IMG/VR virus record: IMGVR_UViG_3300032007_000001
Reading direction: 5' to 3' (one strand)
Source of the DNA: a virus
Taxonomy: Duplodnaviria; Caudoviricetes
DNA: 64,000 bases
The translations under genes were made by a program, and so were the position numbers. The notes under the pieces were generated by a model that did not search any database, was not told the DNA's origin, and saw nothing but the letters and a program-made list of their open reading frames with translations. Positions 1,120 through 22,536 of this stretch are shown piece by piece (the first letter of the stretch is position 1; every line of letters starts with the position of its first letter).

Positions 1120-2106
1120 TTACTTCTTCAATTCTTTGTACCTATCTAACACATACTTAAATTCATTATTAATGAATGGATGGAATAATTCAAGGAAATC
1201 ATTTCTGTTTCCATTTTTCCTATAATTATACATTGCCAAAAATGCAGCATTACTCTGCCAATATTTGTCTTTAATGTTTTCTATCATTTCAAAAATATGT
1301 TTTAAGTTAATTTCGTTTGTAAGTTTTCGCGTTGTTTGTTCAACATTCAAGAATGTCTGTACATCATCATTATTAAAAGAATTATTGAATGGAATATATT
1401 CATCATAAATATCTTTATGTTCTTCATTTACAATATCCTTGCACCAATCCATTTGTTCTATATATAAATGCAAAGAATCAACAACATGTGTATATATACC
1501 AACTTCAATTCCCAAACGATTCGCCATAATTTTTTGCAATACTGTAAAATTAAAAACATCATATGGATAGCCAAACATAATATCATTGCTGCGCATCAGT
1601 ACTAAAAGATTAAGCTTATCATTTCTAATTGAAAATCTCATTAAATTCGTACAAGGTTTGTCTTTCGTTTCTTTGAAATCTTTATTTGGGTCAAACAATA
1701 CAATTGTACCTTGACGAGAATTCTTATCATTTTTCAGAAGTTCGATTACATTTTCAAATTGATTGACTTCATGTTCACTATATCTAAAAATACGTTGCCC
1801 ATATGCACCATTCAATGTCATTCCATCATCGCTGAAATTCATCCAGTTTTTATTATAATGCGCTATATGATGTGCATCATTGCTTCCTTGCAAAATCCAA
1901 GCTAATTCTCCAAGCATAAAACCATAATTAAGTTTCCTGGCTGGACTCAAGATTACATTTTTAAGAGGTTCTTTAATGGTTATACTAGCCGGAGTTATTT
2001 CGAGTGTTTCTATGCCTCGTGGTGCAATTTTCTTACCATTATTTATTAGTTCATTAATCAAATAACTGTAAGAAGAAGGTATTGTATCAAATTCAAATGT
2101 TTTCAT
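1120..2106 (-). CDS. Thymidylate-synthase-superfamily enzyme, predicted dCMP hydroxymethylase (or related dCMP-modifying enzyme)
   Basis: Motifs ELAWIL, AYGQRI, SRQG, catalytic PC, RSNDIMFGYPYD, SLHLY; Asp at the position of E. coli ThyA Asn177 as in dCMP-specific enzymes; SD AGGAG. Confidence 0.85.
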   Translation of the reverse strand: MKTFEFDTIPSSYSYLINELINNGKKIAPRGIETLEITPASITIKEPLKNVILSPARKLNYGFMLGELAWILQGSNDAHHIAHYNKNWMNFSDDGMTLNGAYGQRIFRYSEHEVNQFENVIELLKNDKNSRQGTIVLFDPNKDFKETKDKPCTNLMRFSIRNDKLNLLVLMRSNDIMFGYPYDVFNFTVLQKIMANRLGIEVGIYTHVVDSLHLYIEQMDWCKDIVNEEHKDIYDEYIPFNNSFNNDDVQTFLNVEQTTRKLTNEINLKHIFEMIENIKDKYWQSNAAFLAMYNYRKNGNRNDFLELFHPFINNEFKYVLDRYKELKK

Positions 2107-2182
2107 AAAAATACTCCTAACAACAAAAAGAAAAATGGAAGAAAAATATCTTCCATTTATTCTATGAAATCAAAAACATTTC

Positions 2183-2965
2183 TTAAATAGCAAGTATTTT
2201 TGTTGGCATTAATTGGTCATCTACATTTAAGCAATCTTCAAAATGTACAACGTCTCCAAGCCTAAGACTTGAACCATAACATCCACCAGCGCCATCATAT
2301 ACGGCTATATATTCATTATTCCCATAAATAATTAATTGTCCTTCTTTTAATTCCAAAAGATTATTTGGGAAATCCCTTCTAGTACTTAACAAATTTGTAA
2401 CTAAATCATTTATCCTACTTGTTCCTTTTAATACTTCTTGCCTAATCAACAAACTATACGTAGAAGCTATTGACATGGCAACTTCCATATATGTTGTCCT
2501 TGGATTTACATTTGGTACAATATTTTTAGCTTTTGTTTTAAGATATCCTTTATATACCAATGATTGGAATGTATTTTTTGATGTATTCAAAAGTTCCCAA
2601 ATGCCCCACGTATTGTTTTCGATATCGCCAGTTCTAACATATATTTTGCCAATTTTACTAGTATCTACAATATCATCAACAACATTCATAATTTGGAATG
2701 ACATATTCCCACAAGCAAAATGAAAAAGAGTTCCTCTTGTACAAAACATTTCTGATATATTTTGGCTTGGAATAATAGAGTACATCATTATCCCATTGAG
2801 TGGCCAAAGTCCAGGACCGTCTTCTTCTGTTGTTATATCAACTGGAAAAACGCTTTCATTTACGAATAAATTATAAATATAATCAACTTTTTCTTTCGTT
2901 GATTCTCTCATTTCATTTAAGTCATTATATAACTTCTTTAATGAAAGTTCTTTTTGTGCTGCCAC
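2183..2965 (-). CDS. Hypothetical protein, possibly virion-associated
   Basis: 260 aa GTG-start ORF with SD AGGAGG; IYVRTG...WGIW resembles fibre knob-type motifs (weak). Confidence 0.6.
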   Translation of the reverse strand: MAAQKELSLKKLYNDLNEMRESTKEKVDYIYNLFVNESVFPVDITTEEDGPGLWPLNGIMMYSIIPSQNISEMFCTRGTLFHFACGNMSFQIMNVVDDIVDTSKIGKIYVRTGDIENNTWGIWELLNTSKNTFQSLVYKGYLKTKAKNIVPNVNPRTTYMEVAMSIASTYSLLIRQEVLKGTSRINDLVTNLLSTRRDFPNNLLELKEGQLIIYGNNEYIAVYDGAGGCYGSSLRLGDVVHFEDCLNVDDQLMPTKILAI

Positions 2966-2966
2966 A

Positions 2967-3923
2967 TCAGCACCTCCTATTTCTTATGCAATTATTGAAT
3001 TCAATAAATTCTTCAAAATCATCTGGATTCAAAGTATCAACTTGTATATTTGTAATTAATGAATTTGTAAGTTCATCATCTATACCACTGCTATATTCTC
3101 CACAGTATACCAATCTTTTTATACCTGAAGAAATAATCATTTTTGTGCAATTAGTACAAGGTTTGCATGTTACATATAATGTAGCATCTTTAATATTAAT
3201 ACCATTCATAGCTGCTTTTGAAATTGCATTTGCTTCAGCATGCTGAGAACGGCAATTGTGCACAATCAATCCAATTCTATCGTTCATATCTATTGCAAAA
3301 TTATTTGTTTCTGGAACTTCTAAATCGTATACCGGAAAAACGCCATTTAATTTTTCAACAGCTATGACTTTATTATGAATCAACGTAAATTCATCATTAA
3401 ATGCAAACATCCTACAAACATCATTTGGTTTTAAGTTAATAGCCTGTTTATATGATAAATCTTGCATCATAATTCTATGGTCACTTGTGCATTTGATTGC
3501 TTTTCTATTTTCAAAAACAATCTTTACTATATCATCTCTTTGACCAGTCAAATGAGGATTCGTTGCTTGTGCTGGAACAACATTACCAGTAAGTTCATCA
3601 ACAGAATATAGCCAAACATCTTCATTTGTTTTTGCAAGTTCTTCCATTGATTTTAATTGTCCATCTAACAATCTTACATAATTATCTCCAGTCAAACAAA
3701 GTTCTTGTCTTTCACCTGAAGGAATATGCAATTTCTCTCTTATACATAATTCGTGATTATCAATACAATGTTCCATGCCAGGCAACGCACCATTATAGCC
3801 AGCACTTAATTGGATTTTATCTCTAGCTATAACGCTACCGACTTGTCTCCTAAAGCACGTTGAACGTGAAGCATACATAAAAGCAATCTTCATAAAAAAA
3901 TGGTCAATATCTTCTCTAATCAC
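2967..3923 (-). CDS. dCMP deaminase (ComEB family) interrupted by a mini-intein
   Basis: RSTCxRRQVG, GYNG, HAEANAI and PCxxC zinc motifs; 148-aa insertion before CRSQHAE. Confidence 0.92.
   Translation of the reverse strand: MIREDIDHFFMKIAFMYASRSTCFRRQVGSVIARDKIQLSAGYNGALPGMEHCIDNHELCIREKLHIPSGERQELCLTGDNYVRLLDGQLKSMEELAKTNEDVWLYSVDELTGNVVPAQATNPHLTGQRDDIVKIVFENRKAIKCTSDHRIMMQDLSYKQAINLKPNDVCRMFAFNDEFTLIHNKVIAVEKLNGVFPVYDLEVPETNNFAIDMNDRIGLIVHNCRSQHAEANAISKAAMNGINIKDATLYVTCKPCTNCTKMIISSGIKRLVYCGEYSSGIDDELTNSLITNIQVDTLNPDDFEEFIEFNNCIRNRRC
3255..3698 (-). mobile_element. Mini-intein (148 aa, no homing endonuclease)
   Basis: Starts CLTGD (block A), CTSDH (block B TxxH), VYDLEV..NNF (block F), ends VHN followed by extein Cys. 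Confidence 0.92.
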
Positions 3924-4627
3924 AAAACCACTACCTTTTCCGGTTTAATGATATCAATCTGTTTTTGTACGTCTCTATCAATAGTAATCCAAGCATTATC
4001 ATAGTGTAAACTTGGACAAACAATACGAGTAGAGTCATCTTCATCATTTACAATATACATTGTAGTTGCATTAACATTACCGCGTGGTACTTTTTCCCAA
4101 TCTTTCGTCAATGCTTGCATAACACTGTATTTATCTATTGCTGCCAAAGTTCTTTCCAATGTTTGTTGGTTATTAAATTTTGACGTATTAATTCTGACAT
4201 AAGGCAAATGTTGAATATGCATAAATTTTTCAAAATTCTCTTTTTCTATACCAAGATGTTCTGGTCTCATAAAATCTTCACCACGACGAGCAATACGTCT
4301 TCTAACATCGCTTGGCGCAGCATGAACATAAATAAAAAATGGAATATAATCCAATCCATACATTTTATTTTCTAATTCTAACAAATATTCTGCTGTATAT
4401 CCACGATAAATCGGCGCATAAATCCATTCACCTTCGTGAAATCTATCCAATAGATAATCGCTATTTTTATCCATATTATCCAAAAAACTAAAATATTGGT
4501 TCCTTCCGTCTTCCATATCTTTTGGATTTGAAAAATGTTGAGTTTTTAATCCTTCAAAATAATCTATTAATTTGTGACATAACGAAGTTTTTCCTGCACA
4601 ATTTACTCCAGATACAATCAAGAACAT
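3920..4627 (-). CDS. dNMP/thymidylate kinase-like protein with short C-terminal extension
   Basis: P-loop SGVNCAGKTS, DRFH.GE.IY motif, lid RRIARRGE; stop overlaps the deaminase start. Confidence 0.85.
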   Translation of the reverse strand: MFLIVSGVNCAGKTSLCHKLIDYFEGLKTQHFSNPKDMEDGRNQYFSFLDNMDKNSDYLLDRFHEGEWIYAPIYRGYTAEYLLELENKMYGLDYIPFFIYVHAAPSDVRRRIARRGEDFMRPEHLGIEKENFEKFMHIQHLPYVRINTSKFNNQQTLERTLAAIDKYSVMQALTKDWEKVPRGNVNATTMYIVNDEDDSTRIVCPSLHYDNAWITIDRDVQKQIDIIKPEKVVVL

Positions 4628-4664
4628 ATAACCACACTCCTTATGGTTATATTCTATAAAAAGA

Positions 4665-4691
4665 AAAAGAGTAGATTTTTCTACTCTTTTT
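4665..4691. terminator. Intrinsic terminator hairpin
   Basis: AAAAAGAGTAGA-TTT-TCTACTCTTTTT. Confidence 0.7.
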
Positions 4692-4696
4692 ATATA

Positions 4697-5944
4697 TCAA
4701 TCTGCCAATTGTACAATTCTATACGCGCACATATTGTCTGTTGGTACAGAATACATACTTAAAACGTTAAAATGTCCAGAATCATCATACGCAGAAATAC
4801 CAGCCTCATAATCATCAAGCAAACATATTTTGTTTTCGCAATAATGACTCGACGAATTATCCAAAACATCATTTCCTATAAATATATCACTCATGTCATA
4901 ATTATTTGTTGAATTAAATAAAAAACTCATTACATGACTACCATATTTATACGGTATGGATGTATCAATAATTTCGTTCGAACCATCATTTTTTAATATT
5001 TTATATGTTTGTCTATCACATTCAAATCCATATAACCAACACCGCGATGTATAACGAAGATTGTCTGGTTTGTGTCCAAAAATATCGTATATATTGTGAT
5101 ATTTTGTAGCGAAACCATCATCTTCCATATATTGCTCGTATTCTTCGTATTCTTCATTTTCAATTAACATTTGTAATTCTTCTTCTGTTTTTTCTTCAAT
5201 ACGAATGTCACTCCATAAATTATAGGCACCATATTCAACAAGTAACAATCGTTGTAATAAAGAATGGTCATAAATTGAATACATATTATAACCAGAATTT
5301 CCGTTGCTATTTAATGATAAACATGCATTATACGCATCTTGATAAGAAGTTGTATCTATATCGGACAATCTTATTGACCCTGGTAAATTATTTGTTTTTG
5401 ACGAAAGAAATTTTGCTATTCTTAATTTATGCGGTTGCCCATCGTTTCCGATAAATGCTGGGTGTACATGAAACCCATCTGCATAACCGTCTGCTATCCA
5501 ATAACATACTTTTCCAGCATATGTTCCACTCTGTATAGTCTCTGTCTTTACATATGTAATAGGTATTTCTACAAAATCTCCTACTGATGTTGTTACATTT
5601 CTCATATTGGAATATGTACCATGAGAATATACTTCATTTAAGTTAGCAAACGTTTCTTTATCATATCTAATTCTATCAACAGATTGTGTACTAGTCAATA
5701 CAGCTCCAAGAATATGTTGTGCCTGTGGAACCACAATCGGTACTGTATATTTGGGGACAAAATAATATTTTCCCATTGATTTAACATAAATACCAAGATT
5801 ATTATTATTAACATTATTTACTTGCGTAGCAGCCAAAGGAGATATTACGCCATTATTTCCTTGCCACAATACTCTTGGATATTCATTGTTTTCTGCTATC
5901 CTTACTTCTATTCCTTCTATTGTAGTTGTTGACACTATCATCAC
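4697..5944 (-). CDS. Putative virion receptor-binding protein: shared N-terminal anchor + C-type-lectin/FGE-like C-terminal domain
   Basis: N-terminal ~60 aa nearly identical to 55221..56927; HPAF, LQRLLLVEYG, YHNIYDIFG and terminal AYRI resemble Mtd/CLec-fold fibre tips. Confidence 0.6.
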   Translation of the reverse strand: MMIVSTTTIEGIEVRIAENNEYPRVLWQGNNGVISPLAATQVNNVNNNNLGIYVKSMGKYYFVPKYTVPIVVPQAQHILGAVLTSTQSVDRIRYDKETFANLNEVYSHGTYSNMRNVTTSVGDFVEIPITYVKTETIQSGTYAGKVCYWIADGYADGFHVHPAFIGNDGQPHKLRIAKFLSSKTNNLPGSIRLSDIDTTSYQDAYNACLSLNSNGNSGYNMYSIYDHSLLQRLLLVEYGAYNLWSDIRIEEKTEEELQMLIENEEYEEYEQYMEDDGFATKYHNIYDIFGHKPDNLRYTSRCWLYGFECDRQTYKILKNDGSNEIIDTSIPYKYGSHVMSFLFNSTNNYDMSDIFIGNDVLDNSSSHYCENKICLLDDYEAGISAYDDSGHFNVLSMYSVPTDNMCAYRIVQLAD

Positions 5945-5974
5945 TTCTCTATTATATTTATATAAATTAAATAT

Positions 5975-6004
5975 AAAAGAACTAATCGTTTGATTAGTTC
6001 TTTT
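5975..6004. terminator. Intrinsic terminator hairpin
   Basis: AAAAGAACTAATC-GTTT-GATTAGTTCTTTT. Confidence 0.65.
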
Positions 6005-6009
6005 ATTTC

Positions 6010-6585
6010 TTAAAAAGCTTCTGCTTTATATACCAATTTATAGATTTTCTTTCCGTAAGAACCACTGCTGAAACTCAATGAATGAATTCCTGATTCAACA
6101 ACATAATCAACATAACCATCTGGATTTTGAGCATTAGTTTGTTCAGTTTCTGAACTCATACTATTTGGAACAGCTACACCGTCTGGCGAATATTCCAAAT
6201 TGCCCTCAATACCAAGATATCTGACTTCTAAATGACGATTTACATTATCCATATTTTCGCCATAGTAATCAGCTAATGTTGGAGCAATATGTTCACTAAA
6301 TCCTTCTATATCATCTAACAATACTTCAGATTCAACTGTATCTAAAGTAAATGTAATTTCCCAATCTTCTTGTGGTGTAACAACTGGTATTAGCTCACCA
6401 TTTATATAAAAATACTTATTATCAGCTTTCAAATAAAGTCCTAATTGTTGATTATTTACCTGCTGCACCTGTTGTGCAGCAACAGCAAATTCCCCTTCGT
6501 TATCTTGGAATATAGCTCTTGGATACGTTGTAGTATCGTCGTTAGCTAATACCGTGACATTAAAACCGTGAAGTTCTTTAATCAT
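6010..6585 (-). CDS. Acidic protein carrying the shared N-terminal anchor domain
   Basis: TTTYPRAIF...VAAQQV...LGLYLK..NKYFYI matches three other proteins in the window. Confidence 0.75.
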   Translation of the reverse strand: MIKELHGFNVTVLANDDTTTYPRAIFQDNEGEFAVAAQQVQQVNNQQLGLYLKADNKYFYINGELIPVVTPQEDWEITFTLDTVESEVLLDDIEGFSEHIAPTLADYYGENMDNVNRHLEVRYLGIEGNLEYSPDGVAVPNSMSSETEQTNAQNPDGYVDYVVESGIHSLSFSSGSYGKKIYKLVYKAEAF

Positions 6586-6658
6586 GTTATTTCACCACTG
6601 TTTATAAAATTTTAATTATTACCTTCTTTCCTTTTTGGCTTTCGTATTTGTTATAAAA

Positions 6659-7057
6659 TTATTTATCCTCTAAAAGGTCTGGTCGCCTTGTAGATTCGCT
6701 ACTTGATGTATCTTTATAAGAATAATCAATAGAATCACTATCTATTTCTTCATTCATTTTATCCAAATCTTCTTTGGAATGCAATGTATCATCCTTTATA
6801 ATCTTATCAAGATGTCCTTCTAGTAAAACTCTATCATTTGTAGCATTTTGTTTTATATTATTTTCATACAAGAAATACTGTAATATACTCTGGTCCCAAT
6901 TTGAAAAATGGTCTCTCATCCAAGTACGAAATAATTTGCCTATTTTATCCGTTTCAATTGGGTCATCTTCGTGTATATCTAAAACATATTTCATTGTTAG
7001 TATTATACTTTTTCTTTTTCTTCTTGGTTTTCCAAGACGTTTCATTTTTTCTTCCAT
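6659..7057 (-). CDS. Hypothetical protein with basic MKRL-type leader
   Basis: MEEKMKRLGKPRRKRKS then acidic body. Confidence 0.7.
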   Translation of the reverse strand: MEEKMKRLGKPRRKRKSIILTMKYVLDIHEDDPIETDKIGKLFRTWMRDHFSNWDQSILQYFLYENNIKQNATNDRVLLEGHLDKIIKDDTLHSKEDLDKMNEEIDSDSIDYSYKDTSSSESTRRPDLLEDK

Positions 7058-7074
7058 ATTAAAAACCTTCTATC

Positions 7075-7560
7075 TTATCTAAAATCATCATCATTAATTA
7101 GAATGCAATCATTATATTGATAGATTTTTTCATAATCTGAATCCAAACTTTTTGTGTAATCAATTAAACTTTCAAAATCACTTAATGGGGCATCTTCCAT
7201 TTTCTTATAATATTCTTCTATTGGCATATCATCTGTTATATGATATTTCTTTCTTAATTCATCCCATTTTAATGGCATAATTCCATAATCATCAAATAAC
7301 ACTAATGCATAATTCCAATCATTATAAGAATCTATCTCTTTAATTTGACCGAAATTCAATATATCATGAATATACATTTTAACAGCTTGCATTGGATTGT
7401 TTGTCTTATAAACATTAAATCCATTAAATACATCGCCATTTCTATAATTTTCTAAATTAAATCCATAATTAACGACATCATCATAATCGTCACCATCTGC
7501 TGGAGTTAATCCTAATACTTTTTCAGCAAAATCTTCATTATCTAATTTTTCAAATGCCAT
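7075..7560 (-). CDS. Hypothetical acidic protein
   Basis: 161 aa ORF with SD AAGGA. Confidence 0.7.
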   Translation of the reverse strand: MAFEKLDNEDFAEKVLGLTPADGDDYDDVVNYGFNLENYRNGDVFNGFNVYKTNNPMQAVKMYIHDILNFGQIKEIDSYNDWNYALVLFDDYGIMPLKWDELRKKYHITDDMPIEEYYKKMEDAPLSDFESLIDYTKSLDSDYEKIYQYNDCILINDDDFR

Positions 7561-7602
7561 TTTATATCATTCCTTGTCATACATTTCTCTATAACATAAT
7601 AA

Positions 7603-8148
7603 TTAGAGGTAGGAAAATAAATAATTGTAAATTTTTGCATATGTTTCATTAGAATAATGAATGCCATCTATAGTATCAAATCCATCATTTTTCAAAAAAT
7701 TGTTACTATTTAGAATCATGATGTTGCTTAAAACGTTTTCTTTTACATATATATTAAATGCATCTATTTCACTATTTTTTATTGAATATCCGTATGCTTT
7801 TTCTTTTAATTCTTCAACTGGATTGACTGTCATAAAAATAACTCTTTCGAATCCATTCTTAAATAAATCGTTTATAGCTTCTACGTGTTTTTGCTTGGCT
7901 AAATCATTAACTCCAAGATTATAAATGATTATAGTATCATCTCTTGATAATTGCATTATGTCACTTCTATTTTCCCAATAAAAATTATACCCTACACCAA
8001 TTTCGCAATAATAAATATTTTCATCGTCACCAAGTGCTTCTCTCATTGCAACGAATCTACTATCACCAATAAAGCAATAACTTTCGGCATTGCAATAACT
8101 TACAATTGACATTAAATACAACAAAACAAAAACAATTTTTTTAATCAT
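7603..8148 (-). CDS. SGNH/GDSL hydrolase with signal peptide
   Basis: FIGDSR (block I), NLGVND (block III), DGIHY (block V); N-terminal signal-like MIKKIVFVLLYLMSIVSYCNA. Confidence 0.8.
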   Translation of the reverse strand: MIKKIVFVLLYLMSIVSYCNAESYCFIGDSRFVAMREALGDDENIYYCEIGVGYNFYWENRSDIMQLSRDDTIIIYNLGVNDLAKQKHVEAINDLFKNGFERVIFMTVNPVEELKEKAYGYSIKNSEIDAFNIYVKENVLSNIMILNSNNFLKNDGFDTIDGIHYSNETYAKIYNYLFSYL

Positions 8149-8220
8149 TATAAAGCCTCACTTATTTTTTAATTTATTGTATCAAAAACAAAAAAATGCA
8201 TTATCGTTTTTAAAAAATTA

Positions 8221-8258
8221 AAAAAACTATTTACATTTCTATTTATTTTTGATATAAT
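8221..8258 (+). promoter_or_regulatory. Early sigma-A-type promoter
   Basis: AAAAAACTA-TTTACA(8230-35)-17 nt-TATAAT(8253-58) with extended -10 TG. Confidence 0.8.
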
Positions 8259-8282
8259 GTAAAAAATAGGAGAATTATCAAT

Positions 8283-8603
8283 ATGAAATCAACAAAATTT
8301 GTAGAAAAAGATTTTACATTAAAAATTATGTATTGCTACAATAAAAATATAAAAGACGATTTTTGTATGTGGGAAGCTTATTCAAACACAGATACAAAAA
8401 GCAAAGCTGCTGGTGGAATGTCTTTATATATATTTGATGCATTCAACATTCAAAAAATAAAATTAGAAGTTAGAAGAGCGATATTGTTTTGTAATGAAAC
8501 AAACAATTTTGAAATATATTTATTGAACCAACATTTTGACAAAGTATTTGAAAATGTCAAAAATTTTTTGACGAATAAAGCTTTAGAAAGAATAGGGTTA
8601 TAA
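8283..8603 (+). CDS. Hypothetical early protein
   Basis: SD AGGAG, own promoter and terminator. Confidence 0.7.
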   Translation: MKSTKFVEKDFTLKIMYCYNKNIKDDFCMWEAYSNTDTKSKAAGGMSLYIFDAFNIQKIKLEVRRAILFCNETNNFEIYLLNQHFDKVFENVKNFLTNKALERIGL

Positions 8604-8607
8604 AAAT

Positions 8608-8639
8608 AAAAAGAGAGGAATAAATCCTCTCTTTTTTTT
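8608..8639. terminator. Bidirectional terminator between convergent genes
   Basis: AAAAAGAGAGGA-ATAAA-TCCTCTCTTTTTTTT. Confidence 0.8.
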
Positions 8640-8641
8640 AT

Positions 8642-10060
8642 TTATGCTTTTTTCTTTCTTTTTGACTTTTTGAATTCTTTAATGTCTATTTCCTTATTGC
8701 CTTCGATAATACCGAATATATTCTTTTCGTACATTTCTCTTACACCGAAAACAACAATATTCTTATCTTTATATTCATTGTATAATTTGAGATATTCGTC
8801 AACAAATTCATCATCAATCAAATGTTTAATAATATCTTCATCTGTTTTGAATTTGTTTTTGTCATGTCCTAAATCAAGAATTTCTTGCAACATCTCCGGA
8901 ACAACTTCATCAGCTGAAAATTCCATGTTAATGACTTTATAGCCATTTTTAATCATTTCTTTTTGTTTTTCTACGTCTTTGCTTAATTCAACGATTTCTT
9001 TTGCTGTCTTTTCCAAATCATTCTTATCATTAACCAACATAAATGGATGTTTTAAGTTATAGTCATAATACGTTTCACCAGTTGTTCTGATAAGATGATT
9101 GTGTTTTGCCCAATCAATATCAAATACAGGAATTGCGCCGGCATTGCAATATTCCATCATTGCACATTCCCAACGGTCAGAATACTCAGATTCCTTAAGA
9201 TGGAAACCAGAAAAAGCAAACATAGAATTTGATAATTCCTTCATAGCATCGGCATGAACATATTCTTTATATACCTCTGCACAACCTTTTTCATTTGGCT
9301 GAGGACCCTTATTTGGGTCTGTCATGTCAATACAGTATGGATTATCATAAATATCATCTTTTGCTCCACGAGATTTTTCCATTCCCATTACTTTTACTTG
9401 AAAATCTGGGTCAAACTTCTTAATATATGGAGCCATATTCAAAAGTCTAGATGGGTCTTTTGTTGTTGTCCAACGACCACAGAACATAATCTTCTTGTCT
9501 GTGTGAGGATTCTCATTCCTAAATTGCTTCATTTCTTCAAAGTCAACGCAATGAGTCATGCGCAATACTCTATGTTCTGCTTTTTTACTTGGGAACATAC
9601 CCTCCATAGACCTATTAAACCAAGTATTGGGACCGTAACCATAGATAATATCCATATTATTCATAATGCCAACCAAATATGGAATCTTATCAATAAATGT
9701 TTTATGGAGTTCATACGTAAATCCAACTTTAATAGGCTTCGTTACGCCCTTAACAATCTTTTCATAAAAGTTTCTTGCATAAGAATGACTAAATTTAGCA
9801 TAAGGATAACTCCAAAACATGACAACATCTTTTTCGTTCAACTGTTTTTGAATGTCATCTAAGTCCTTTTCTTTATATCCAACATAATCAAATTTTTGAG
9901 AATTGTGACGAGACATTTTTTTGCCAACATGAGCAAAAATTTGCAAATCTATCCCATTACGTTGACACCACGTCCAAATTTCTACAGCGCATCTTGTACA
10001 TCCAACGCCATCAATAGCTCTACCAAGTACTATAGCAAATTTTGCATTCTTATAATCCAT
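8642..10060 (-). CDS. DNA alpha-glycosyltransferase, homologue of T4 alpha-glucosyltransferase (GT-B)
   Basis: Colinear matches to T4 Agt as recalled: GRAIDGVGCTR~ARGLEGCGVTK, CGRWTTTKD~IGRTTTWKG, MGMEKS~EGLERS, WECAMMEYCNAGAIPVF~LEYTHLELGACGTIPVF, DKNDLEKTAKEIVELSKD~DENDMESTFERIKELSSD. Confidence 0.85.
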   Translation of the reverse strand: MDYKNAKFAIVLGRAIDGVGCTRCAVEIWTWCQRNGIDLQIFAHVGKKMSRHNSQKFDYVGYKEKDLDDIQKQLNEKDVVMFWSYPYAKFSHSYARNFYEKIVKGVTKPIKVGFTYELHKTFIDKIPYLVGIMNNMDIIYGYGPNTWFNRSMEGMFPSKKAEHRVLRMTHCVDFEEMKQFRNENPHTDKKIMFCGRWTTTKDPSRLLNMAPYIKKFDPDFQVKVMGMEKSRGAKDDIYDNPYCIDMTDPNKGPQPNEKGCAEVYKEYVHADAMKELSNSMFAFSGFHLKESEYSDRWECAMMEYCNAGAIPVFDIDWAKHNHLIRTTGETYYDYNLKHPFMLVNDKNDLEKTAKEIVELSKDVEKQKEMIKNGYKVINMEFSADEVVPEMLQEILDLGHDKNKFKTDEDIIKHLIDDEFVDEYLKLYNEYKDKNIVVFGVREMYEKNIFGIIEGNKEIDIKEFKKSKRKKKA

Positions 10061-10123
10061 AATTTTCTCCTCTCTTAAATTAAAGATTTATTTATCATAA
10101 TCATTAAAAATGATTTTGTTTTT

Positions 10124-11104
10124 TCAATACCCATTTGGATGTTTGCTATGCCAACGCCAAGCTGTTTCTATAATATGTTCTATATTTGTATATTTGGGAT
10201 TCCATTTCAAAATATTTTTTGCTTTTTCATTAGAAGCAACCAACTCTGGCGGGTCTCCAGGACGGCGTTCTGACATTTTTATTTTTATTTCTTTGCATGT
10301 TACTTTTTGAGCAGCTAAAATAATTTCTTTTACAGAAAAACCATTCCCATTTCCAAGATTGAAAACGTTACTTTCATTTCCGTTTCTTAAATAATCCAAT
10401 GCCAAAATATGTGCATCAGCTAAATCCATGACATGAATATAATCTCTTATACAAGTTCCATCTTTTGTATTATAGTCATTTCCAAAAATATTTACATATT
10501 TCCTTTGACCGAGAGGAACTTGCAATACCAACGGAATCAAGTGCGTTTCATATTTATGGTCTTCACCAATGGACCCATCTTCAATTGCTCCAGCAGCATT
10601 AAAATATCTAAGCGAAACGTATTTGATATGATGTATTTCATCTACCCATCTCATCATTTTTTCCATTATAAGTTTTGATTCGCCATAAGGATTTATTGGA
10701 TTCGTTTCGTTTTTTTCAAAAATTGGAAGTGTTTTTGGTTCTCCGTATGTTGCACATGTTGAAGAAAATACTATTTTATCTGTTCCATGTTTTACCATTG
10801 CTTCCAACAAAACCTGCATTCCATATACATTGTTATTGAAATACTTCAACGGGTTTTTCATGCTTTCAACAACCAATGCGTCAGCAGCAAAATGTACAAC
10901 AGAATTTATCTTATTTTCAGTAAAAACCTTATCAAGAATTTCTTTATTACGAATATCTCCTTGATAGAATTTTACATTTTTAATTGCTTCTGTATGTCCA
11001 GTAGATAAATTGTCTATTACAATTACATCTGTATCTCTTTCCAATAATTGATGTACTGTATGAGAGCCAATATATCCCGCTCCTCCGCAAACCAAAACAG
11101 ACAT
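10124..11104 (-). CDS. galE: UDP-sugar 4-epimerase (GalE/Uxe family)
   Basis: GGAGYIGSH, FSST, YGESK (YxxxK), LRYFN, DGTCIRDYIHV, RRPGDP; start reset to ATG 11104 right after the uxs stop. Confidence 0.92.
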   Translation of the reverse strand: MSVLVCGGAGYIGSHTVHQLLERDTDVIVIDNLSTGHTEAIKNVKFYQGDIRNKEILDKVFTENKINSVVHFAADALVVESMKNPLKYFNNNVYGMQVLLEAMVKHGTDKIVFSSTCATYGEPKTLPIFEKNETNPINPYGESKLIMEKMMRWVDEIHHIKYVSLRYFNAAGAIEDGSIGEDHKYETHLIPLVLQVPLGQRKYVNIFGNDYNTKDGTCIRDYIHVMDLADAHILALDYLRNGNESNVFNLGNGNGFSVKEIILAAQKVTCKEIKIKMSERRPGDPPELVASNEKAKNILKWNPKYTNIEHIIETAWRWHSKHPNGY

Positions 11105-11105
11105 A

Positions 11106-12053
11106 TTACTTACCAACTTTCTTAGCAAAATATTCTATCGTTTTTATAAGACCATCATGAGAAGAAATTTTTGGTTCCCAATTCAATTTCTTTTTAGCTA
11201 AAGAAATATCTGGACAACGTTGCATTGGGTCATCCTTTGGAGATTCACAATAAACGATTTCAGATTTTGAATTTGTAAGTTCTTTAATCCACTCTGCAAG
11301 TTCTTTTACTTCATATTCTTCTTGATTACCAATATTGACTGGACCAATAAATCCATCTTCTGAATTCATCATTCTTACTATGGCTTCAATCAAATCATCT
11401 ACATAACAAATACTTCTTGTTTGATGTCCATCGCCATAAATTGTTATTGGTTTTCCAGTCAAACATTGTGTAATAAAATTTGAAATTACTCTGCCATCAT
11501 TAACATCCATATATGGACCGTATGTATTGAAAATACGAACAATTTTTACATTTGTGCCATACATTCTATTATAATTGAATATTAATGATTCTCCAACTCT
11601 TTTGCCTTCATCATAACAAGAACGTAAGCCATTGCAATTGACATTTCCCCAATAACTTTCTGGTTGTATTTTAATTCTTGGGTCTGGGTCTCCATATACT
11701 TCACTTGTACTTGTTTGTAAAAATTTAGCATTATATTTTTTTGCTAAATCAAGCATATTCATTACACCAAGAAAACATGTTTTCAAAGTAAAAACATGGT
11801 CTTTTTGATAATGAGGCGGGCTTGCCGGACATGCTAAATTATAAATTTCATCAACTTCAATATCAATAGGTTCTATGATATCATGTTGAATAAATTCAAA
11901 ACGATTATTATTCAATAAATCTTTTATATTTTCTTTTGTTCCTGTATATAGATTATCTAAACATATGATGTAATCGTCTGTTTCTCTTAATAATTTTCTG
12001 CAAAGATTTGTACCAAGAAATCCAGCACCGCCAGTTACAAGAATTCTTTTCAT
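11106..12053 (-). CDS. uxs: UDP-glucuronate decarboxylase (UDP-xylose synthase)
   Basis: LVTGGAGFLG, IYNLACPASPPHYQ, STSEVYGDP, RSCYDEGKR, RIFNTYGP, DGRVISNFI, QTRS, DDPMQRCPDI are UXS signatures. Confidence 0.93.
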   Translation of the reverse strand: MKRILVTGGAGFLGTNLCRKLLRETDDYIICLDNLYTGTKENIKDLLNNNRFEFIQHDIIEPIDIEVDEIYNLACPASPPHYQKDHVFTLKTCFLGVMNMLDLAKKYNAKFLQTSTSEVYGDPDPRIKIQPESYWGNVNCNGLRSCYDEGKRVGESLIFNYNRMYGTNVKIVRIFNTYGPYMDVNDGRVISNFITQCLTGKPITIYGDGHQTRSICYVDDLIEAIVRMMNSEDGFIGPVNIGNQEEYEVKELAEWIKELTNSKSEIVYCESPKDDPMQRCPDISLAKKKLNWEPKISSHDGLIKTIEYFAKKVGK

Positions 12054-12055
12054 GA

Positions 12056-13345
12056 TTAAGCTCCAATCTGATAGTATGTAAATCCGTTTTCTTGCATTTC
12101 TTTTTTATTATAAAGATTTCTTCCATCAAAAATAATTGGATTATTTAATAAATGTTTCATTTTCTCTTTATCTGATTTGATAAAATCGTTCCATTCTGTA
12201 AGAATGATTAAAGCATCACAACATTGTAACGCGCTATACATATCGTATGTATAAATTACGTTATCCAAATAAAAGTCAGCTGTTTTCATTGCCTGCGGGT
12301 CATAAGCAAAAATTTCTGCACCACGTTTTTGAAGTTCGTTTATAACGACAATAGACGGAGCTTCTCGCATATCATCTGTTTCTGGCTTAAATGCCAATCC
12401 CCAAACAGCAAAACGAATACCTTTCAAATCATTACCAAAATGTTTCAATACTTTCTTTACAATCAACATTTTTTGATCTTTATTTACCTCTTCAACAGCT
12501 TTTAAGATTCTTGAATTATATTTAATGTCTTTACTTGTTTTAATTAATGCTTGTACATCTTTAGGGAAGCAACTTCCACCATATCCGCAACCAGGATTTA
12601 TAAATTTGAATCCAATCCTCGAATCCATTCCCATTCCTTTACGAACATAATTTATATCTGCACCAACTCGTTCACAAATATTAGAAATTTCGTTAATAAA
12701 CGAAATCTTGGTTGCCAACATTGCGTTTGATGCATATTTTGTAAGTTCTGCACTTCTAATATCCATCAATACGAATTTTTCGTCCGGTACAAAATCATAT
12801 AATTTTCTCATAAGTTCAGATGAACTATCACATCCAACCACAACTCTATCTGGATTTAAGAAATCATCAATTGCAGAACCTTCTTTTAAGAATTCCGGAT
12901 TTGAAACAACATGAAAAGGAATTTCAACGTTTCTAGCAAAAAGTTCTCTTTTTATAATGCTCTTTACTTTATCAGCCGTTCCAACTGGAACGGTTGATTT
13001 ATCTACTACAGTAATTTCTTTTTCAATATTTTGTCCTATTTCTTTTGCAACGCCAAGAACATATTGCAAATCCGCACTTCCATCTTCGCCCATCGGAGTG
13101 CCAACAGCAATAAATGCAATATCACAATTTTTGATTTCTTTTATATTGGTTGAAAAAGAAATATGTTCTTTATTTTGTTCAATTAATTCTTTTAATCCTG
13201 GTTCATAAATTGGAATCTCACCATTTTGCAATTTCTTAATTTTTTCTTCTACAACGTCTATACATATAACGTTATTTCCTTTTGAAGCAAAACATACACC
13301 AGTAACAAGACCAACATATCCAGTTCCAATAATAGCTATTTTCAT
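12056..13345 (-). CDS. ugd: UDP-glucose 6-dehydrogenase
   Basis: IGTGYVGL, AVGTP, KSTVPVGT, SNPEFLKEG, KYASN, GYGGSCFPKD, LAFKPETDDMRE, DGRN; start reset to ATG 13345 (SD GGAG). Confidence 0.95.
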   Translation of the reverse strand: MKIAIIGTGYVGLVTGVCFASKGNNVICIDVVEEKIKKLQNGEIPIYEPGLKELIEQNKEHISFSTNIKEIKNCDIAFIAVGTPMGEDGSADLQYVLGVAKEIGQNIEKEITVVDKSTVPVGTADKVKSIIKRELFARNVEIPFHVVSNPEFLKEGSAIDDFLNPDRVVVGCDSSSELMRKLYDFVPDEKFVLMDIRSAELTKYASNAMLATKISFINEISNICERVGADINYVRKGMGMDSRIGFKFINPGCGYGGSCFPKDVQALIKTSKDIKYNSRILKAVEEVNKDQKMLIVKKVLKHFGNDLKGIRFAVWGLAFKPETDDMREAPSIVVINELQKRGAEIFAYDPQAMKTADFYLDNVIYTYDMYSALQCCDALIILTEWNDFIKSDKEKMKHLLNNPIIFDGRNLYNKKEMQENGFTYYQIGA

Positions 13346-13541: not shown

Positions 13542-13817
13542 TTGAAGAGATTAATTAAAGCAAACAATCAAAATAGTTTTGATGAAAACATTGACGAAAT
13601 GTCATCAAAATTATATAAACTAAAAGAAACGTACGAAGATATATCGTACGTACATGAAAGATATAAACAATATATAAAAAGTGAAATGAATAACAAAGAA
13701 GAACAATTAATTACATTAAGAAACAATATGAAACAAATGCTAAAAAGTAATGAAAAATATATTTCCGAATATGAAAATATCATTAAAAATTTTATAAATG
13801 ACTTGGAGGAAAAATAA
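13542..13817 (+). CDS. Small coiled-coil protein, MKRL-leader family
   Basis: TTG start, MKRLIKANN. Confidence 0.7.
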   Translation: MKRLIKANNQNSFDENIDEMSSKLYKLKETYEDISYVHERYKQYIKSEMNNKEEQLITLRNNMKQMLKSNEKYISEYENIIKNFINDLEEK

Positions 13818-18162: not shown

Positions 18163-20757
18163 TCACAATCTCGGGTCAAATGATTCTGCTCGTTTTTCAT
18201 CCATAATGAATTTTGCAAACAAACGTTTCATTGCATTGTTTGATTCACTAATATCATTATAATGAATAGCAAGCATTTTCAATCCACAATGCCATTCTTT
18301 CCAAGACATATCCAATTTTTTCTTTATGGATTTGCGTTCGTATAATTTATTGCTCTTAAATGGATTTTGATAGTCATATCCATAAACAATTGATAAATAA
18401 TTTGGATTACGAACTTTCATATAAGGAACAACATGTTTTACATGTAAATCATTAGGTTTCATGACTATGCCTTCAAATTTCTTTTGTTCAGTATAATATT
18501 TGAATTTCTCAATGCAATCATTAATATCACTTTCTTTTGTCAAATCATATAAATTACATTGGTCTTCATTTAATATATTGAACATCTTTTCATTTGTCAT
18601 ATCAAAAGTCTTATCAAGATAATAACATACTTCTTTATCATCTTTCATGACAATTTTCAAAACAGCAAATGGTTTATAGTCTATTTCACCTTTTGACCCA
18701 TAAATATGAAGTTGTTCATTATATGAATCTGCTAATTCTTGTTTTTTATCTTCATCAATATGTCCATGATATTCATAAATGGTATTGAAAGAAGAATAAT
18801 TGGAATCTCCAATTTTTGCAATCAATTCTTTTTTAGACATAGAATTTTTATCTTCCAAAAAAGTAGACTCTTTCATTTTGTTTAGCAGTTCGTTATAATG
18901 TTTTTCAAAATTGGTTTCTTTTAAGAATTCATTCTCTTTTGAAACATTATCATAAACCAATTTGAAATCATTAATCAAACCTTGACCAAGAGCACTCCAG
19001 GGCATCAATTCTCCGTCTAATATAACTAACCTCACTTTATCAAAAAAGTCATTCTTGTACTGTTTGAGCCTATCTCGCATCTTTTCATAAATTGGTTCAA
19101 GATTTTCAATCTTAATCTTATAACCATTCCTTGAAACACAATAACAATCATCATTGTTTTCAAACAAGTACATATTACAACGAGAACCCATATATTTAGG
19201 CTGCATGCAGACTTTGAAAACATTGTGAGATTTGAAATACTCAATTGCAGATTCAATGCTTTCAAGCTTATCATTCATCTTATCACATGGAGACATTGTA
19301 CCAGAAATAAAATTGACTTTATCATTAAGCATATGATTAAGCCGTGCTTTTTCAGAATCTGTCATATCATCAATATTGACTTCTTCATTCACATCTTCTG
19401 ATTTTCTATAAGGCTTAATGACAAATAATTCGTCTTCTTTATTTTGATGTGAAGCAACTGATTTAATATACAGCTTTCTATCTCTTCCAACTTCTGCAGA
19501 AACGAGTCTCCCACCAATGACGCACGCTCCATCAATCAAAATCCTATTATTGATATGAATGCCAGGAGTAGAAGTTTGTACGTGACCAAAAATATGATAA
19601 ATATTTCCAATATCTCTATCAAACAAATTCATTTGTTCGTCAAATTCTTCCTGCAAAGATTCTCTCATATCTTGTTGCATGAAATATCTTTGACGAGCAC
19701 AAGACCTACTATCAATTTTTCCAAGATACATTGCATTACAAGGAGAATGCGTTGCAATGAATTTATCGTTCATTACAAAAGGCAATGTATTTTCAAATAC
19801 TTTTATAAACTTTTCTTTATACTCATCAGTAATGATATCAAATGTATTGAACCACGGTTCAGAAATATGTTCCAACCCCTGCGTCAATTCCTTGTATAAG
19901 CGATTTTCATGATTGCCAACCGTTATCTTAATTGAATCTGAATTTTGATAACAAAATTCAATCATATCAAAAATTTTTGGACCCTTATCAATATAATCAC
20001 CATTTACAATCAAAAGTTTATTATGCTTATTTTCTACGATTTTATGATTTTCTACTTTAATATCACTTTTGTCAAGCAATTCAACAAACTCATCATAACA
20101 ACCATGAACATCTGAAATAACCAATGCTTCTTGTTCATTATTAACAAAACACTCTTGCAATTTTTCATGCATAGAAAAAGACAATTCTGGAAAAGATTTC
20201 TCAAAATTGTTTTCTTTAATCTGAATGCATTGACGAACAACTTTATTTTTTTTCAAAGAAGACGCCGAAATTTCACGCATTTTTGTAACGTCTTTTTGCA
20301 TCAATCTTGAAAAAGGAACATGTAAATGATACTCTTCAAATTTTTTATAATTGAAAAGCAATGCCACTACATTATAATGATTTTTTTCAGCAATATCAAG
20401 AATTTCTTTTCTGAAATTTTCATTTGTTCCTTTTGTATCAACGATAATAAATTCTGAATTTACAGGGAAAGATGATGCTGCATCTACATGTTTATAAAGC
20501 ATTTCGAATGCCATTTTACTTACTGCCATCATACCATCATGATTACGGCCCAAATCGTTACCAAGCAAAACCCTACGAATATCGTCAGAAGAAATATAGT
20601 TAATTGAAACTTTTTCTCTATTTTTAATTGGAGAGAGTTGTTCCAATTTTGGAATCAAATGATTTTTACAAAAATAAGTCTTTCCACAACCAGAAGGACC
20701 AATCGTCAAAAATATAGTATGAGGAAGAATATCATATGTTACTCTCTCATTATTCAT
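18163..20757 (-). CDS. pnkp: Bacterial-type polynucleotide kinase-phosphatase-ligase (Pnkp)
   Basis: N-terminal P-loop GPSGCGKT; metallophosphoesterase DVHG, GDYIDKG, GNHE, FGH; ligase motifs KYMGSR, DGELMPWS, EGIVMKP, KVRN..YL.IVYG; C-terminal DPRL. Confidence 0.93.
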   Translation of the reverse strand: MNNERVTYDILPHTIFLTIGPSGCGKTYFCKNHLIPKLEQLSPIKNREKVSINYISSDDIRRVLLGNDLGRNHDGMMAVSKMAFEMLYKHVDAASSFPVNSEFIIVDTKGTNENFRKEILDIAEKNHYNVVALLFNYKKFEEYHLHVPFSRLMQKDVTKMREISASSLKKNKVVRQCIQIKENNFEKSFPELSFSMHEKLQECFVNNEQEALVISDVHGCYDEFVELLDKSDIKVENHKIVENKHNKLLIVNGDYIDKGPKIFDMIEFCYQNSDSIKITVGNHENRLYKELTQGLEHISEPWFNTFDIITDEYKEKFIKVFENTLPFVMNDKFIATHSPCNAMYLGKIDSRSCARQRYFMQQDMRESLQEEFDEQMNLFDRDIGNIYHIFGHVQTSTPGIHINNRILIDGACVIGGRLVSAEVGRDRKLYIKSVASHQNKEDELFVIKPYRKSEDVNEEVNIDDMTDSEKARLNHMLNDKVNFISGTMSPCDKMNDKLESIESAIEYFKSHNVFKVCMQPKYMGSRCNMYLFENNDDCYCVSRNGYKIKIENLEPIYEKMRDRLKQYKNDFFDKVRLVILDGELMPWSALGQGLINDFKLVYDNVSKENEFLKETNFEKHYNELLNKMKESTFLEDKNSMSKKELIAKIGDSNYSSFNTIYEYHGHIDEDKKQELADSYNEQLHIYGSKGEIDYKPFAVLKIVMKDDKEVCYYLDKTFDMTNEKMFNILNEDQCNLYDLTKESDINDCIEKFKYYTEQKKFEGIVMKPNDLHVKHVVPYMKVRNPNYLSIVYGYDYQNPFKSNKLYERKSIKKKLDMSWKEWHCGLKMLAIHYNDISESNNAMKRLFAKFIMDEKRAESFDPRL

Positions 20758-20759: not shown

Positions 20760-21233
20760 TTATTCTCCTTCCTGAATTTTATGCTTTTCTGCAAATGCGT
20801 CAATATATTCTTTCATTTTATTATCTATAAATATTGCGTCTTTAAAAAATTCTGTACAAATATTAACAACATTTTCAGCTTCAGCAATAAACAAATACAT
20901 AAGCGTATGCCATAAAACATCGTTTTGTTTTTGTGTTGATATTCCGTTTTGTTCTCCATACATACATATCATTGAATTTTCATCATGAGAATCAAATTTT
21001 GCAATAATATCTTTTGATTTAAAATCAACAACAATCTGTAGTTGTCCTGGAAAATCAACGACAATCATTAAATCATCAGCTAACTTAGAATCAGAAAAAG
21101 AAAATATTTTTTCTTTCATTATTTCTTTTGCTTCACTAGCAGCCATAAACAATTCTTCTGAATTATACGATTTTTGATTAAATTTATAAAAATCACTCGA
21201 ATGTTTCCCGCCATACGTAATTTCATACACCAT
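20760..21233 (-). CDS. Hypothetical protein between hen1 and pnkp
   Basis: 157 aa, overlapping or abutting both neighbours. Confidence 0.75.
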   Translation of the reverse strand: MVYEITYGGKHSSDFYKFNQKSYNSEELFMAASEAKEIMKEKIFSFSDSKLADDLMIVVDFPGQLQIVVDFKSKDIIAKFDSHDENSMICMYGEQNGISTQKQNDVLWHTLMYLFIAEAENVVNICTEFFKDAIFIDNKMKEYIDAFAEKHKIQEGE

Positions 21234-22536
21234 TTTCTGTTCTCTCCTTTATAACAACCAAGAGAGTCGTTGAAATATCATCAACTTCGTCACCAATATT
21301 TTTCAATGAATATTCAAAATTTGTATCTTTCAAAAGATTTTCAAAATAACTTTCTGTTTCTTCTTTATTCATTTCAAATTTATGGTCAGGATGACGCATT
21401 TCATCATCTTTTAAGTGATAGAATTTATTAAAGTCTTTATTTGGCGTTGTAATAAGCAATTTCTTGCAATGTTTATCTTTGAAAAATGTTTTGAATAACC
21501 TATCCATGTATTCTTTTTCATTATGTTCAAAAACTTCAGAAAGAATAACAATATAATCTCTTGTTACACCATGCAAAAAGAAGTCCTCAACACTCTTAAG
21601 GACCACTACATTTTTCAAATTATCTCTTTTAATTCTTCGTTCAACCGATTGTCTTGCTTTTTCATCAATATCAATAGCATAATATGTATTCGGATTTTTT
21701 TCAGCCAAACGAGTATACATGCCTTCGCCACAACCGACATCCACTATTGCTTTATCATGCGTTATTTGACTTGCAATTGTAGAATATCTGCAAAATTGAT
21801 TTTCAAATGGCGAAATATTCAACTTGTGATTTTTGTCTTTATTTATTTCTTCTTTGATTTGATTAAATTCTTCATTCTTACGAATTCCTAAGAATTTTAT
21901 CATATATTTAATGTAATACGGTGCCGAAATAATATTTGCTGCTTTTACCATTTTTTTGACAATATCAATTGTTTTTTCCATTTCAACCGAATCAAATTTT
22001 GCAATAAACCACACAAATAAATAAGTAAAATTAAGCAATTGATGAAATGTTTTGTTTTTTACATTAATTGTAATTGAATAATTATTGTAATATTCTTCTT
22101 CATCAACTGGTTCATGTTTCAATTTATTAAATGTTACATAAAAATCATCAAAATACTCAAGCAAACTCATCACTTTATTAAAACGTTTTACTTCCATGGA
22201 ATTGATATATAAAGTATAATCGCCTGTGTGGTCATATTGTTTTACTTTACCAAGCGCACCAGAAAAAAATGTCTTTAAGATATTTGAAACGATTACTGGA
22301 GAATTATATCTTGTATAATCCAAATATTCAAATTCTTGAGACATTTTTTTAGCAAAACTGATTTCGTCCGCATCATCAAAAAACACTACGTTATATCTAT
22401 TTTCAGATGAATAATACCCAAAGGCATAACCTTTGCGAATTGCTTTCGCAGTCATGCCAGTTAATGGATTTTTTTCAACAATAAATGAAAAATCTTTTTC
22501 ATTTGAAATGATTGAAATTGCTCCCATATATTTCAC
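21223..22536 (-). CDS. hen1: Hen1 3'-terminal RNA 2'-O-methyltransferase
   Basis: N-terminal FSFIVEKNP...EYLDYTRY ligase-activating region; SAM motif VDVGCGEG, EVFEH, ITTPN, RHPDHKFE. Confidence 0.88.
   Translation of the reverse strand: MKYMGAISIISNEKDFSFIVEKNPLTGMTAKAIRKGYAFGYYSSENRYNVVFFDDADEISFAKKMSQEFEYLDYTRYNSPVIVSNILKTFFSGALGKVKQYDHTGDYTLYINSMEVKRFNKVMSLLEYFDDFYVTFNKLKHEPVDEEEYYNNYSITINVKNKTFHQLLNFTYLFVWFIAKFDSVEMEKTIDIVKKMVKAANIISAPYYIKYMIKFLGIRKNEEFNQIKEEINKDKNHKLNISPFENQFCRYSTIASQITHDKAIVDVGCGEGMYTRLAEKNPNTYYAIDIDEKARQSVERRIKRDNLKNVVVLKSVEDFFLHGVTRDYIVILSEVFEHNEKEYMDRLFKTFFKDKHCKKLLITTPNKDFNKFYHLKDDEMRHPDHKFEMNKEETESYFENLLKDTNFEYSLKNIGDEVDDISTTLLVVIKERTENGV

Follow-up and report, generated by a model that had tools for sequence, protein, structure and literature searches.

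A predicted UDP-pentose supply for an Agt-family DNA glycosyltransferase in a 504-kb phage genome

Gene organization of the locus

The IMG/VR virus record IMGVR_UViG_3300032007_000001 is a genome of 504,279 bp, about 29% G+C, that is complete by CheckV. A 64,000-nucleotide stretch of it, bases 289438-353437 (the window), carries on its minus strand a group of genes that probably serves to make and glycosylate 5-hydroxymethylcytosine (5hmC) in the phage DNA (Table 1). Three of them, ugd, uxs and galE, encode a nucleotide-sugar pathway (the cassette) and lie directly upstream of a gene for a glycosyltransferase (GT) of the T4 Agt family; further along the same strand are genes for a kinase, a dCMP deaminase and a thymidylate synthase (TS) homologue. 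The original prediction from this DNA had called all seven of these genes, and each was found at the position that it gave. It had also described tight packing of the first four genes and a terminator after the GT gene. Both are present: the gaps between ugd, uxs, galE and the GT gene are 2, 1 and 63 nucleotides, and hairpin terminators flank ugd upstream and the GT gene downstream, so that the four genes resemble a single transcription unit. Good ribosome-binding sites precede ugd (its ATG at 13345 follows GGAGAG) and the GT gene, and the region as a whole contains 11 terminator-like sites, compared with 4.0 +/- 2.2 in shuffled sequence.

Table 1. Features of the glycosylation and base-synthesis region (window coordinates)
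Feature	Position	Strand	Remark
terminator-like hairpin	13629-13651	-	upstream of ugd; end of preceding unit
ugd, UDP-glucose 6-dehydrogenase (UDP-glucose to UDP-glucuronate)	12056-13345	-	first operon gene
uxs, UDP-glucuronate decarboxylase (UDP-glucuronate to UDP-xylose)	11106-12053	-	human UXS1 match
galE-family UDP-sugar 4-epimerase	10124-11104	-	proposed interconversion of UDP-xylose and UDP-L-arabinose
T4 Agt-family DNA glycosyltransferase (retaining GT-B)	8642-10060	-	last operon gene
intrinsic terminator	8608-8636	-	closes the ugd-uxs-galE-GT unit; 12-bp stem, then T run
variable filler between GT and kinase	4697-8148	-	open reading frames 7603-8148, 7075-7560, 6010-6585 and 4697-5944; not conserved in relatives
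132-aa protein	6659-7057	-	basic N-terminus, acidic C-terminus; in all relatives placed between GT and kinase
P-loop dNMP-kinase-like protein	3920-4627	-	proposed phosphorylation of 5-hydroxymethyl-dCMP, putative substrate
dCMP deaminase with mini-intein	2967-3923	-	dCMP_cyt_deam_1 and Intein_splicing
conserved 260-aa protein	2183-2965	-	between deaminase and TS homologue; 48-50% identical in relatives
TS homologue, predicted 5-hydroxymethyl-dCMP synthase	1120-2106	-	cytosine-nucleotide hydroxymethylase signature

Ugd has all three Pfam UDPG_MGDP_dh domains, scores 460 bits against TIGR03026 (nucleotide-sugar dehydrogenase, cut-off 190) and 520 bits against the TuaD equivalog, which is under the 700-bit cut-off of that model, and matches the UDP-glucose dehydrogenase of PDB entry 2y0e at E 1e-138. 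Uxs aligns end to end (residues 2-312) with human UXS1 (4gll and 2b69, E 4e-101) and keeps the catalytic motifs TSE, YDEGK and RIFNT. The next-best PDB match after UXS1 is at E 9e-36, and ArnA and the UDP-apiose/UDP-xylose synthase (6h0p, 6h0n), at about E 1e-21, are some 80 orders of magnitude worse than UXS1.

The third enzyme is a member of the GalE family (458 bits against the TIGR01179 equivalog, cut-off 262; PDB 2c20 at E 3e-125) with intact catalytic T/Y/K/N residues (T124, Y149 and K153) and Leu as its gatekeeper. That Leu was considered as a marker for pentose or hexose substrates and rejected, as it does not discriminate between them, and we know of no sequence signature for epimerase activity on UDP-xylose and UDP-L-arabinose. 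GalE enzymes are promiscuous, and the family is able to make UDP-galactose or UDP-galacturonate. A precedent for a pentose substrate is Uxe of Sinorhizobium, which equilibrates UDP-xylose with UDP-β-L-arabinopyranose (Gu et al. 2011, as cited in PMC6024577).

The presence of the full enzyme set for UDP-glucose to UDP-glucuronate to UDP-xylose (and its interconversion with UDP-L-arabinose) within the transcription unit of the GT is supported. The co-location of these enzymes with an Agt-type GT was central to the original prediction, and it holds in the identity of the enzymes, in their single unit and in the conservation of the arrangement in three lineages (below). Among bacteria, an alphaproteobacterial metagenome-assembled genome has a uxs-ugd-galE trio whose epimerase is 54% identical to that of the phage and has the same T124/L299 pattern, and gut bacteria commonly have ugd-uxs pairs for polysaccharide synthesis. 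Very diverse bacteria have proteins about 60% identical to Uxs, and none of them was identified as the donor of the cassette.

The glycosyltransferase and the predicted base

The fourth gene of the unit had been taken for a homologue of T4 α-glucosyltransferase, and three kinds of comparison bear this out. Its product matches the α-glucosyltransferase family phrog_2888 at E 5e-70 over residues 3-398 and the PDB chains of T4 AGT at E 3e-9 over residues 7-364, and the AGT fold is the closest to its own. An AlphaFold (AF2) model built on 64 family members has a pLDDT of 95.9, and in a Foldseek search with it ranks 1-9 are all T4 AGT (E 6e-25 to 8e-22, TM score by target 0.81-0.89); after them come GT4 enzymes, none better than E 2e-12, so that a factor of at least 10^12 in E-value separates AGT from other retaining GT-B enzymes. 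The score against Pfam PF11440 (AGT) is 16 bits, under the cut-off of 25, although relatives do carry precomputed PF11440 matches; membership in the family therefore rests on the PHROG, PDB sequence and fold evidence. The protein shares only about 18-23% of its residues with T4 Agt and is extended at the C-terminus by about 70 amino acids. R196 and K201 of a GRxxxxK loop and E298 are invariant across the 64 family members, and E298 aligns with E306 of T4 AGT, which together with D115 we take to be an active-site residue of that enzyme. The family is rare, with 130 representatives among 1.84 billion proteins.

A search of the whole 504 kb genome found no second AGT-family gene, no homologue of T4 β-glucosyltransferase and no GT of the GT2 or GT1_4 families, and the only sugar short-chain dehydrogenase/reductase genes found in it are uxs and galE. 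The DNA glycosyltransferase is thus the sole phage-encoded consumer that was found for the product of the cassette.

The original prediction placed a dNMP kinase, a dCMP deaminase and a dCMP-type TS homologue downstream on the same strand; all three are there, the deaminase being split by an intein. The best PDB match of the TS homologue is the CMP hydroxymethylase MilA (E 8e-37), TS itself matching at only 1e-17, and among phage proteins it is closest to the dUMP hydroxymethylases of SPO1-type phages. In the numbering of E. coli ThyA, Asp177 selects dCMP, Asp or Glu at position 143 leads to a hydroxymethyl and not a methyl product, and Asn169 is the mark of the flavin-dependent 5-hydroxy-dCMP synthases of RB69-like phages (PMC13326640). 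The window TS homologue, those of three relatives and gp319 of Bacillus phage G all have D143/C146/D169/D177, as does T4 gp42 once its D179 is aligned with N177, and in MilA the residues that align with 143, 169 and 177 are likewise Asp. The controls behave as they should: N177 is kept in the dUMP hydroxymethylase gp29 of SPO1, and the ThyA of this genome reads L143/D169/N177.

It had been left open in the original prediction whether the modified base would be 5hmC or 5-hydroxycytosine (5hoC). The former agrees with the D143/D177 hydroxymethylase signature; the latter was rejected, as D169 is kept in the window protein and in all its relatives, and the absence of a D169N change leads us to predict 5hmC. 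Two further genes lie outside the window: a second, canonical thyA is found 42 kb upstream (genome bases 247528-248328), and a query with the T4 gp56 dCTPase found a dUTPase_2-family NTPase (429731-430513, E 2e-7). The TS signature, the separate ThyA and this gp56-like NTPase together indicate that a T4-type 5hmC scheme is encoded. The putative 5-hydroxymethyl-dCMP kinase matches phrog_761 (E 6e-20), phage G gp315 (E 9e-40) and, weakly, the SPbeta prophage protein YorR.

The intein in the deaminase is a mini-intein of 148 amino acids at about 3255-3698, directly ahead of the catalytic HAE zinc motif, with Cys1, a terminal His-Asn and a +1 Cys as judged by alignment with the intein-free relative L002; it is present in contigs L003 and L010 and absent from L002 and L009. 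Two small proteins of this region are also conserved. The 260-aa protein has a conserved C-terminal motif, and in every close relative, though not in phage G, its gene keeps this place between those for the deaminase and the TS homologue; Pfam and PHROG assign the protein to no family and an Atlas search gave no lead, and it may be an unrecognized part of the pathway. The 132-aa protein is 81-84% identical in L002 and L003, a conservation above that of the flanking GT, kinase and TS homologue, and it belongs to no family in Pfam, PHROG or Atlas searches.

Related phages and the remaining genes of the window

The closest named homologues of the proteins of this module are those of the 497-kb Bacillus phage G, and in a megablast search the locus matched none of 50,697 phage records. 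Other relatives are closer. The cassette is present in three lineages, namely that of the window and a 97% identical twin, P0002 (GT 71% identical to that of the window) and P0003 (GT 70%). In the relatives ugd-uxs-galE also lies directly upstream of the GT gene, and the cassette enzymes are 65-75% identical to those of the window (Uxs 74%). A search for this gene order in other phages had been proposed with the original prediction, and the order recurs in P0002 and P0003, with GTs of about 70% identity. In sister contig L003 ugd is split into two open reading frames (5432-6729), and it is intact (427 aa) in another contig that carries this GT.

Two further lineages, P0004 (GT 64-65%) and P0005 (GT 59%), have the GT without the cassette. 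Its neighbours there are the same as in the window, a sigma-like gene on one side and on the other a gene of 118-136 aa, the kinase, the deaminase, a 259-aa gene and the TS homologue, and the siblings differ in one respect only, the presence or absence of the cassette at that spot. No ugd or uxs is found anywhere in the 416-kb, 99%-complete P0004 genome. As these siblings retain the GT, this family is evidently able to work without the cassette. In the three contigs of more distant family members that were examined the GT gene adjoins the TS homologue, and two of the three have sugar-nucleotide genes there, different from those of the cassette. The simplest reading of these arrangements would be a conserved core of 5hmC synthesis and an Agt-type GT, to which an exchangeable donor-supply cassette may be added. 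The uxs gene of the huge phage LR756500 (462 kb) was dropped as a further example of the synteny, since it is an isolated gene flanked by recA-like and dnaB-like ones.

Certain residues of the GT track the cassette. In an alignment of 116 family members, four of them cassette-bearing and 112 not, residue 299, next to the invariant Glu298, is Cys in the four cassette-bearing GTs and in 0/112 of the others; Tyr is found there in 78% of the non-cassette members and in 15/15 of the phage-G-like subfamily, cassette-free siblings included. At residue 116 the four have Tyr where the subfamily is otherwise invariantly His. Ten changes at subfamily-conserved columns are private to the four, and six of these fall within residues 285-301 (hypergeometric P ~3e-4, for a stretch that was chosen after seeing the data). 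These changes fit a retuned donor pocket, as a correlation only. In the literature searched we found no description of the sugar-pocket residues of T4 AGT by which Cys299 and Tyr116 could be placed.

The stretch itself is present in public bovine-gut metagenome runs. Contigs from a bovine-gut metatranscriptome of another study match it with 100% identity across the genes for the TS homologue and the GT, across uxs and across both junctions between cassette genes; that library may contain DNA, and the contigs thus speak for presence only and not for transcription or co-transcription. Relatives of the stretch at 90-97% identity are found in a sheep-gut run, and the two DNA runs with small shares that were examined likewise contain relatives 90-97% identical.

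The filler open reading frames between the GT and kinase genes have no family matches and no counterparts in L002 or L003. Relatives carry DUF7487 genes in their place; these occur around the GT gene in varying positions (L003 8653-9987 and 11495-12049; L006 5892-7595), one of them fused to a REase_MTES_1575 nuclease domain, and near the GT they behave like mobile homing-endonuclease genes. Elsewhere in the window, also on the minus strand, are an RNA-repair pair, a bacterial-type Pnkp (phosphatase and ligase-like adenylyltransferase, 18163-20757) and Hen1 (N-terminal domain and methyltransferase, 21223-22536), and two large DUF285 (Mycoplasma-type repeat) proteins (40928-42475 and 55221-56927). 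ARAGORN calls a tRNA-Pro at 37644-37741, inside a G+C-rich gene for a glycine-rich tail-collar protein (37334-39586); an Rfam scan of the window found nothing, there or elsewhere, and the call is therefore probably false.

The predicted DNA sugar

That this rumen megaphage makes glycosylated 5hmC DNA seems to us quite probable from its gene content. In the scheme that we propose, the gp42/MilA-type TS homologue would make 5-hydroxymethyl-dCMP, the phage's own kinase would phosphorylate it and the gp56-like NTPase would probably help to deplete dCTP, so that 5hmC would be polymerized into the phage DNA and presumably replace cytosine to some extent. After replication the single Agt-family retaining GT would decorate the hydroxymethyl group, its likely donor being a UDP-pentose from the presumably co-transcribed cassette and not host UDP-glucose. 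Ugd would supply UDP-glucuronate, Uxs would decarboxylate it to UDP-α-D-xylose, and the GalE-type 4-epimerase may interconvert this product and UDP-β-L-arabinopyranose. DNA modified in this way would be expected to resist restriction enzymes, CRISPR nucleases and type IV enzymes specific for glucosyl-5hmC.

That the sugar on the DNA is the pentose of the cassette is a suggestion that we believe slightly more than we doubt. AGT is a retaining enzyme, and the expected products are therefore α-D-xylosyl- or β-L-arabinopyranosyl-5hmC. Only UDP-L-arabinose needs all three enzymes, and the trio is kept in each cassette-bearing lineage, so we lean to L-arabinopyranose over xylose; the β-L-arabinopyranosyl form is judged somewhat more likely than the α-D-xylosyl form. 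Several considerations weigh against a pentose. For both the DNA modification and the donor, the proposal is a prediction from genes. The GTs of the cassette-free siblings presumably use UDP-glucose and that of the window may do likewise, and the promiscuity of GalE makes its pentose role a guess. The private residues of the cassette-bearing GTs could be plain lineage drift, and since these GTs form one clade the link between residues and cassette remains a correlation. The split ugd of L003 is either an assembly error or a sign of cassette decay, and in LR756500 uxs occurs alone and away from any GT.

The pentose has to be weighed against ordinary α-glucosyl-5hmC made from host UDP-glucose, with the cassette as auxiliary metabolism that would alter the UDP-sugar pools or surface polysaccharides of the host by way of host transferases, and so might block superinfection or change a receptor. 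We think this unlikely, though well worth keeping in view. The GT family is named for glucose transfer, T4 and the siblings need no cassette, uxs and ugd are found in other phages without a DNA glycosyltransferase nearby, and the ugd-uxs pairs of gut bacteria show how ordinary such genes are in polysaccharide synthesis. Against this, the cassette belongs to the operon of the GT and has a constant position in each of three lineages, and Ugd would drain the very UDP-glucose that the GT required; nor was another phage GT found to use the product, and the private changes close to the active site are limited to the cassette-bearing GTs.

It is improbable, in our estimation, that the GT transfers glucuronate, galacturonate, galactose or a mixture of sugars with Uxs merely tuning the pools. 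An intact Uxs, conserved to the degree noted above, would be pointless or counter-productive for those donors, even though Ugd alone yields UDP-glucuronate, the GalE family can make UDP-galactose and UDP-galacturonate, and the gatekeeper Leu suggests a roomy epimerase pocket. We give very little credence to a module with no role in DNA, in which a MilA-like enzyme would hydroxymethylate CMP for a small molecule or RNA and the GT would act on a protein or metabolite. Among solved structures the TS homologue is indeed closest to a CMP (ribonucleotide) hydroxymethylase of antibiotic biosynthesis, but its gene is linked to those for the dCMP deaminase and the dNMP-kinase-like protein in every relative, its nearest phage homologues are SPO1-type dUMP hydroxymethylases, and the fold of the GT is specifically that of the base-flipping DNA enzyme AGT.

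The predicted pentosyl-5hmC is a variant on the known glycosyl-5hmC theme. Glucosyl-5hmC synthesis in T4 (gp42, the gp1 kinase, gp56 dCTPase, cd deaminase, td TS and α-glucosyltransferase) follows the same logic with homologous parts, and the two phages have in common a D143/D169/D177 TS homologue, a canonical TS, a dCMP deaminase, a gp56-like NTPase and an Agt-family retaining GT. They differ in that the TS homologue here belongs to the MilA/SPO1 branch, the kinase shows no detectable likeness to gp1, and the GT shares its operon with a UDP-pentose pathway that T4 lacks. Phage G has the core of GT, kinase, deaminase and TS homologue in its gp306-gp319 module (39% identity to the window GT, 49% to the TS homologue and 37.5% to the kinase) and the same D143/D169/D177 signature. 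It has no ugd, uxs or galE there; instead two Agt-type GTs flank another cassette (L005 8441-10870) of a nucleotidyltransferase, gp309, a HAD phosphatase, gp310, and gp311, none of which has a homologue in the 504-kb genome. These three proteins recall the AfhE/AfhF-type sugar-activation enzymes of arabinosylating phages. The DNA of phage G may carry an uncharacterized sugar too; our literature search found no published chemistry of it.

The phages RB69, DLP3 and HY126 resemble the system predicted here in placing a pentose on a C5-oxygenated cytosine by means of a TS homologue, phage-encoded sugar activation and DNA glycosyltransferases. RB69, DLP3 and their relatives carry D-arabinofuranose on 5hoC (Lee et al. 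2026, NAR, PMC13326640; Thomas et al. 2018, PMC6024577). Their sugar is derived from ribulose-5-phosphate by an isomerase, a kinase/pyrophosphorylase and a HAD phosphatase, whereas here decarboxylation of UDP-glucuronate would give pyranose pentoses; their base is made by a D169N flavin-dependent synthase, whereas D169 is kept here and 5hmC is predicted; and their transferases differ from the Agt-type GT. The original prediction had set the RB69-type phages apart by sugar route and transferases; Lee et al. (2026, PMC13326640) confirm that these phages use another route and also another base than the one predicted here. The Uxs/Uxe route was in fact raised as a possibility for RB69, but no such genes were found (Thomas et al. 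2018, PMC6024577).

Shewanella phage Thanatos is similar to the predicted system in that its cytosine bears a sugar of the pentose type and one of its enzymes produces UDP-xylose (PMC12838424). That enzyme is a UDP-xylose pyrophosphorylase acting on xylose-1-phosphate, the adduct is reported as a deoxypentose (PMC12838424), and Lee et al. (PMC13326640) included the Thanatos TS homologue in their tests of D169N (5hoC) enzymes. The UDP-xylose/UDP-L-arabinose pathway of bacteria and plants (Ugd, Uxs and Uxe, as in Sinorhizobium meliloti) has the same three families in the same chemical order; its products feed polysaccharide and glycan GTs, whereas the sole linked GT here is a DNA-modifying one. 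The original prediction knew of no description of this combination of base and pathway, and in the literature that we searched we also found none: a full-text search turned up neither a UDP-glucuronate-decarboxylase route to a phage DNA sugar nor any xylosyl modification of phage DNA.

A broader proposal, in which belief and doubt seem to us evenly balanced, is that this would be the first 5hmC DNA bearing a pyranose pentose by way of a captured bacterial cassette, that siblings swap the glycan by means of the donor cassette, and that the GT has been retuned near its invariant Glu, notably by the Tyr to Cys change at residue 299. If the prediction is true, xylosyl- or L-arabinopyranosyl-5hmC would be a new natural DNA base derivative and the Uxs/Uxe pathway a new donor route. 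DNA glycosyltransferases of this kind serve as tools for labelling 5hmC, and one specific for a pentose could be useful in that role. Which restriction, type IV and CRISPR nucleases are able to cut the DNA of a phage, and which DNA glycosylases can act on it, depends on the identity of its sugar. The sibling GTs with and without the cassette, 59-71% identical to that of the window, offer a ready system for the evolution of donor specificity in DNA glycosyltransferases.

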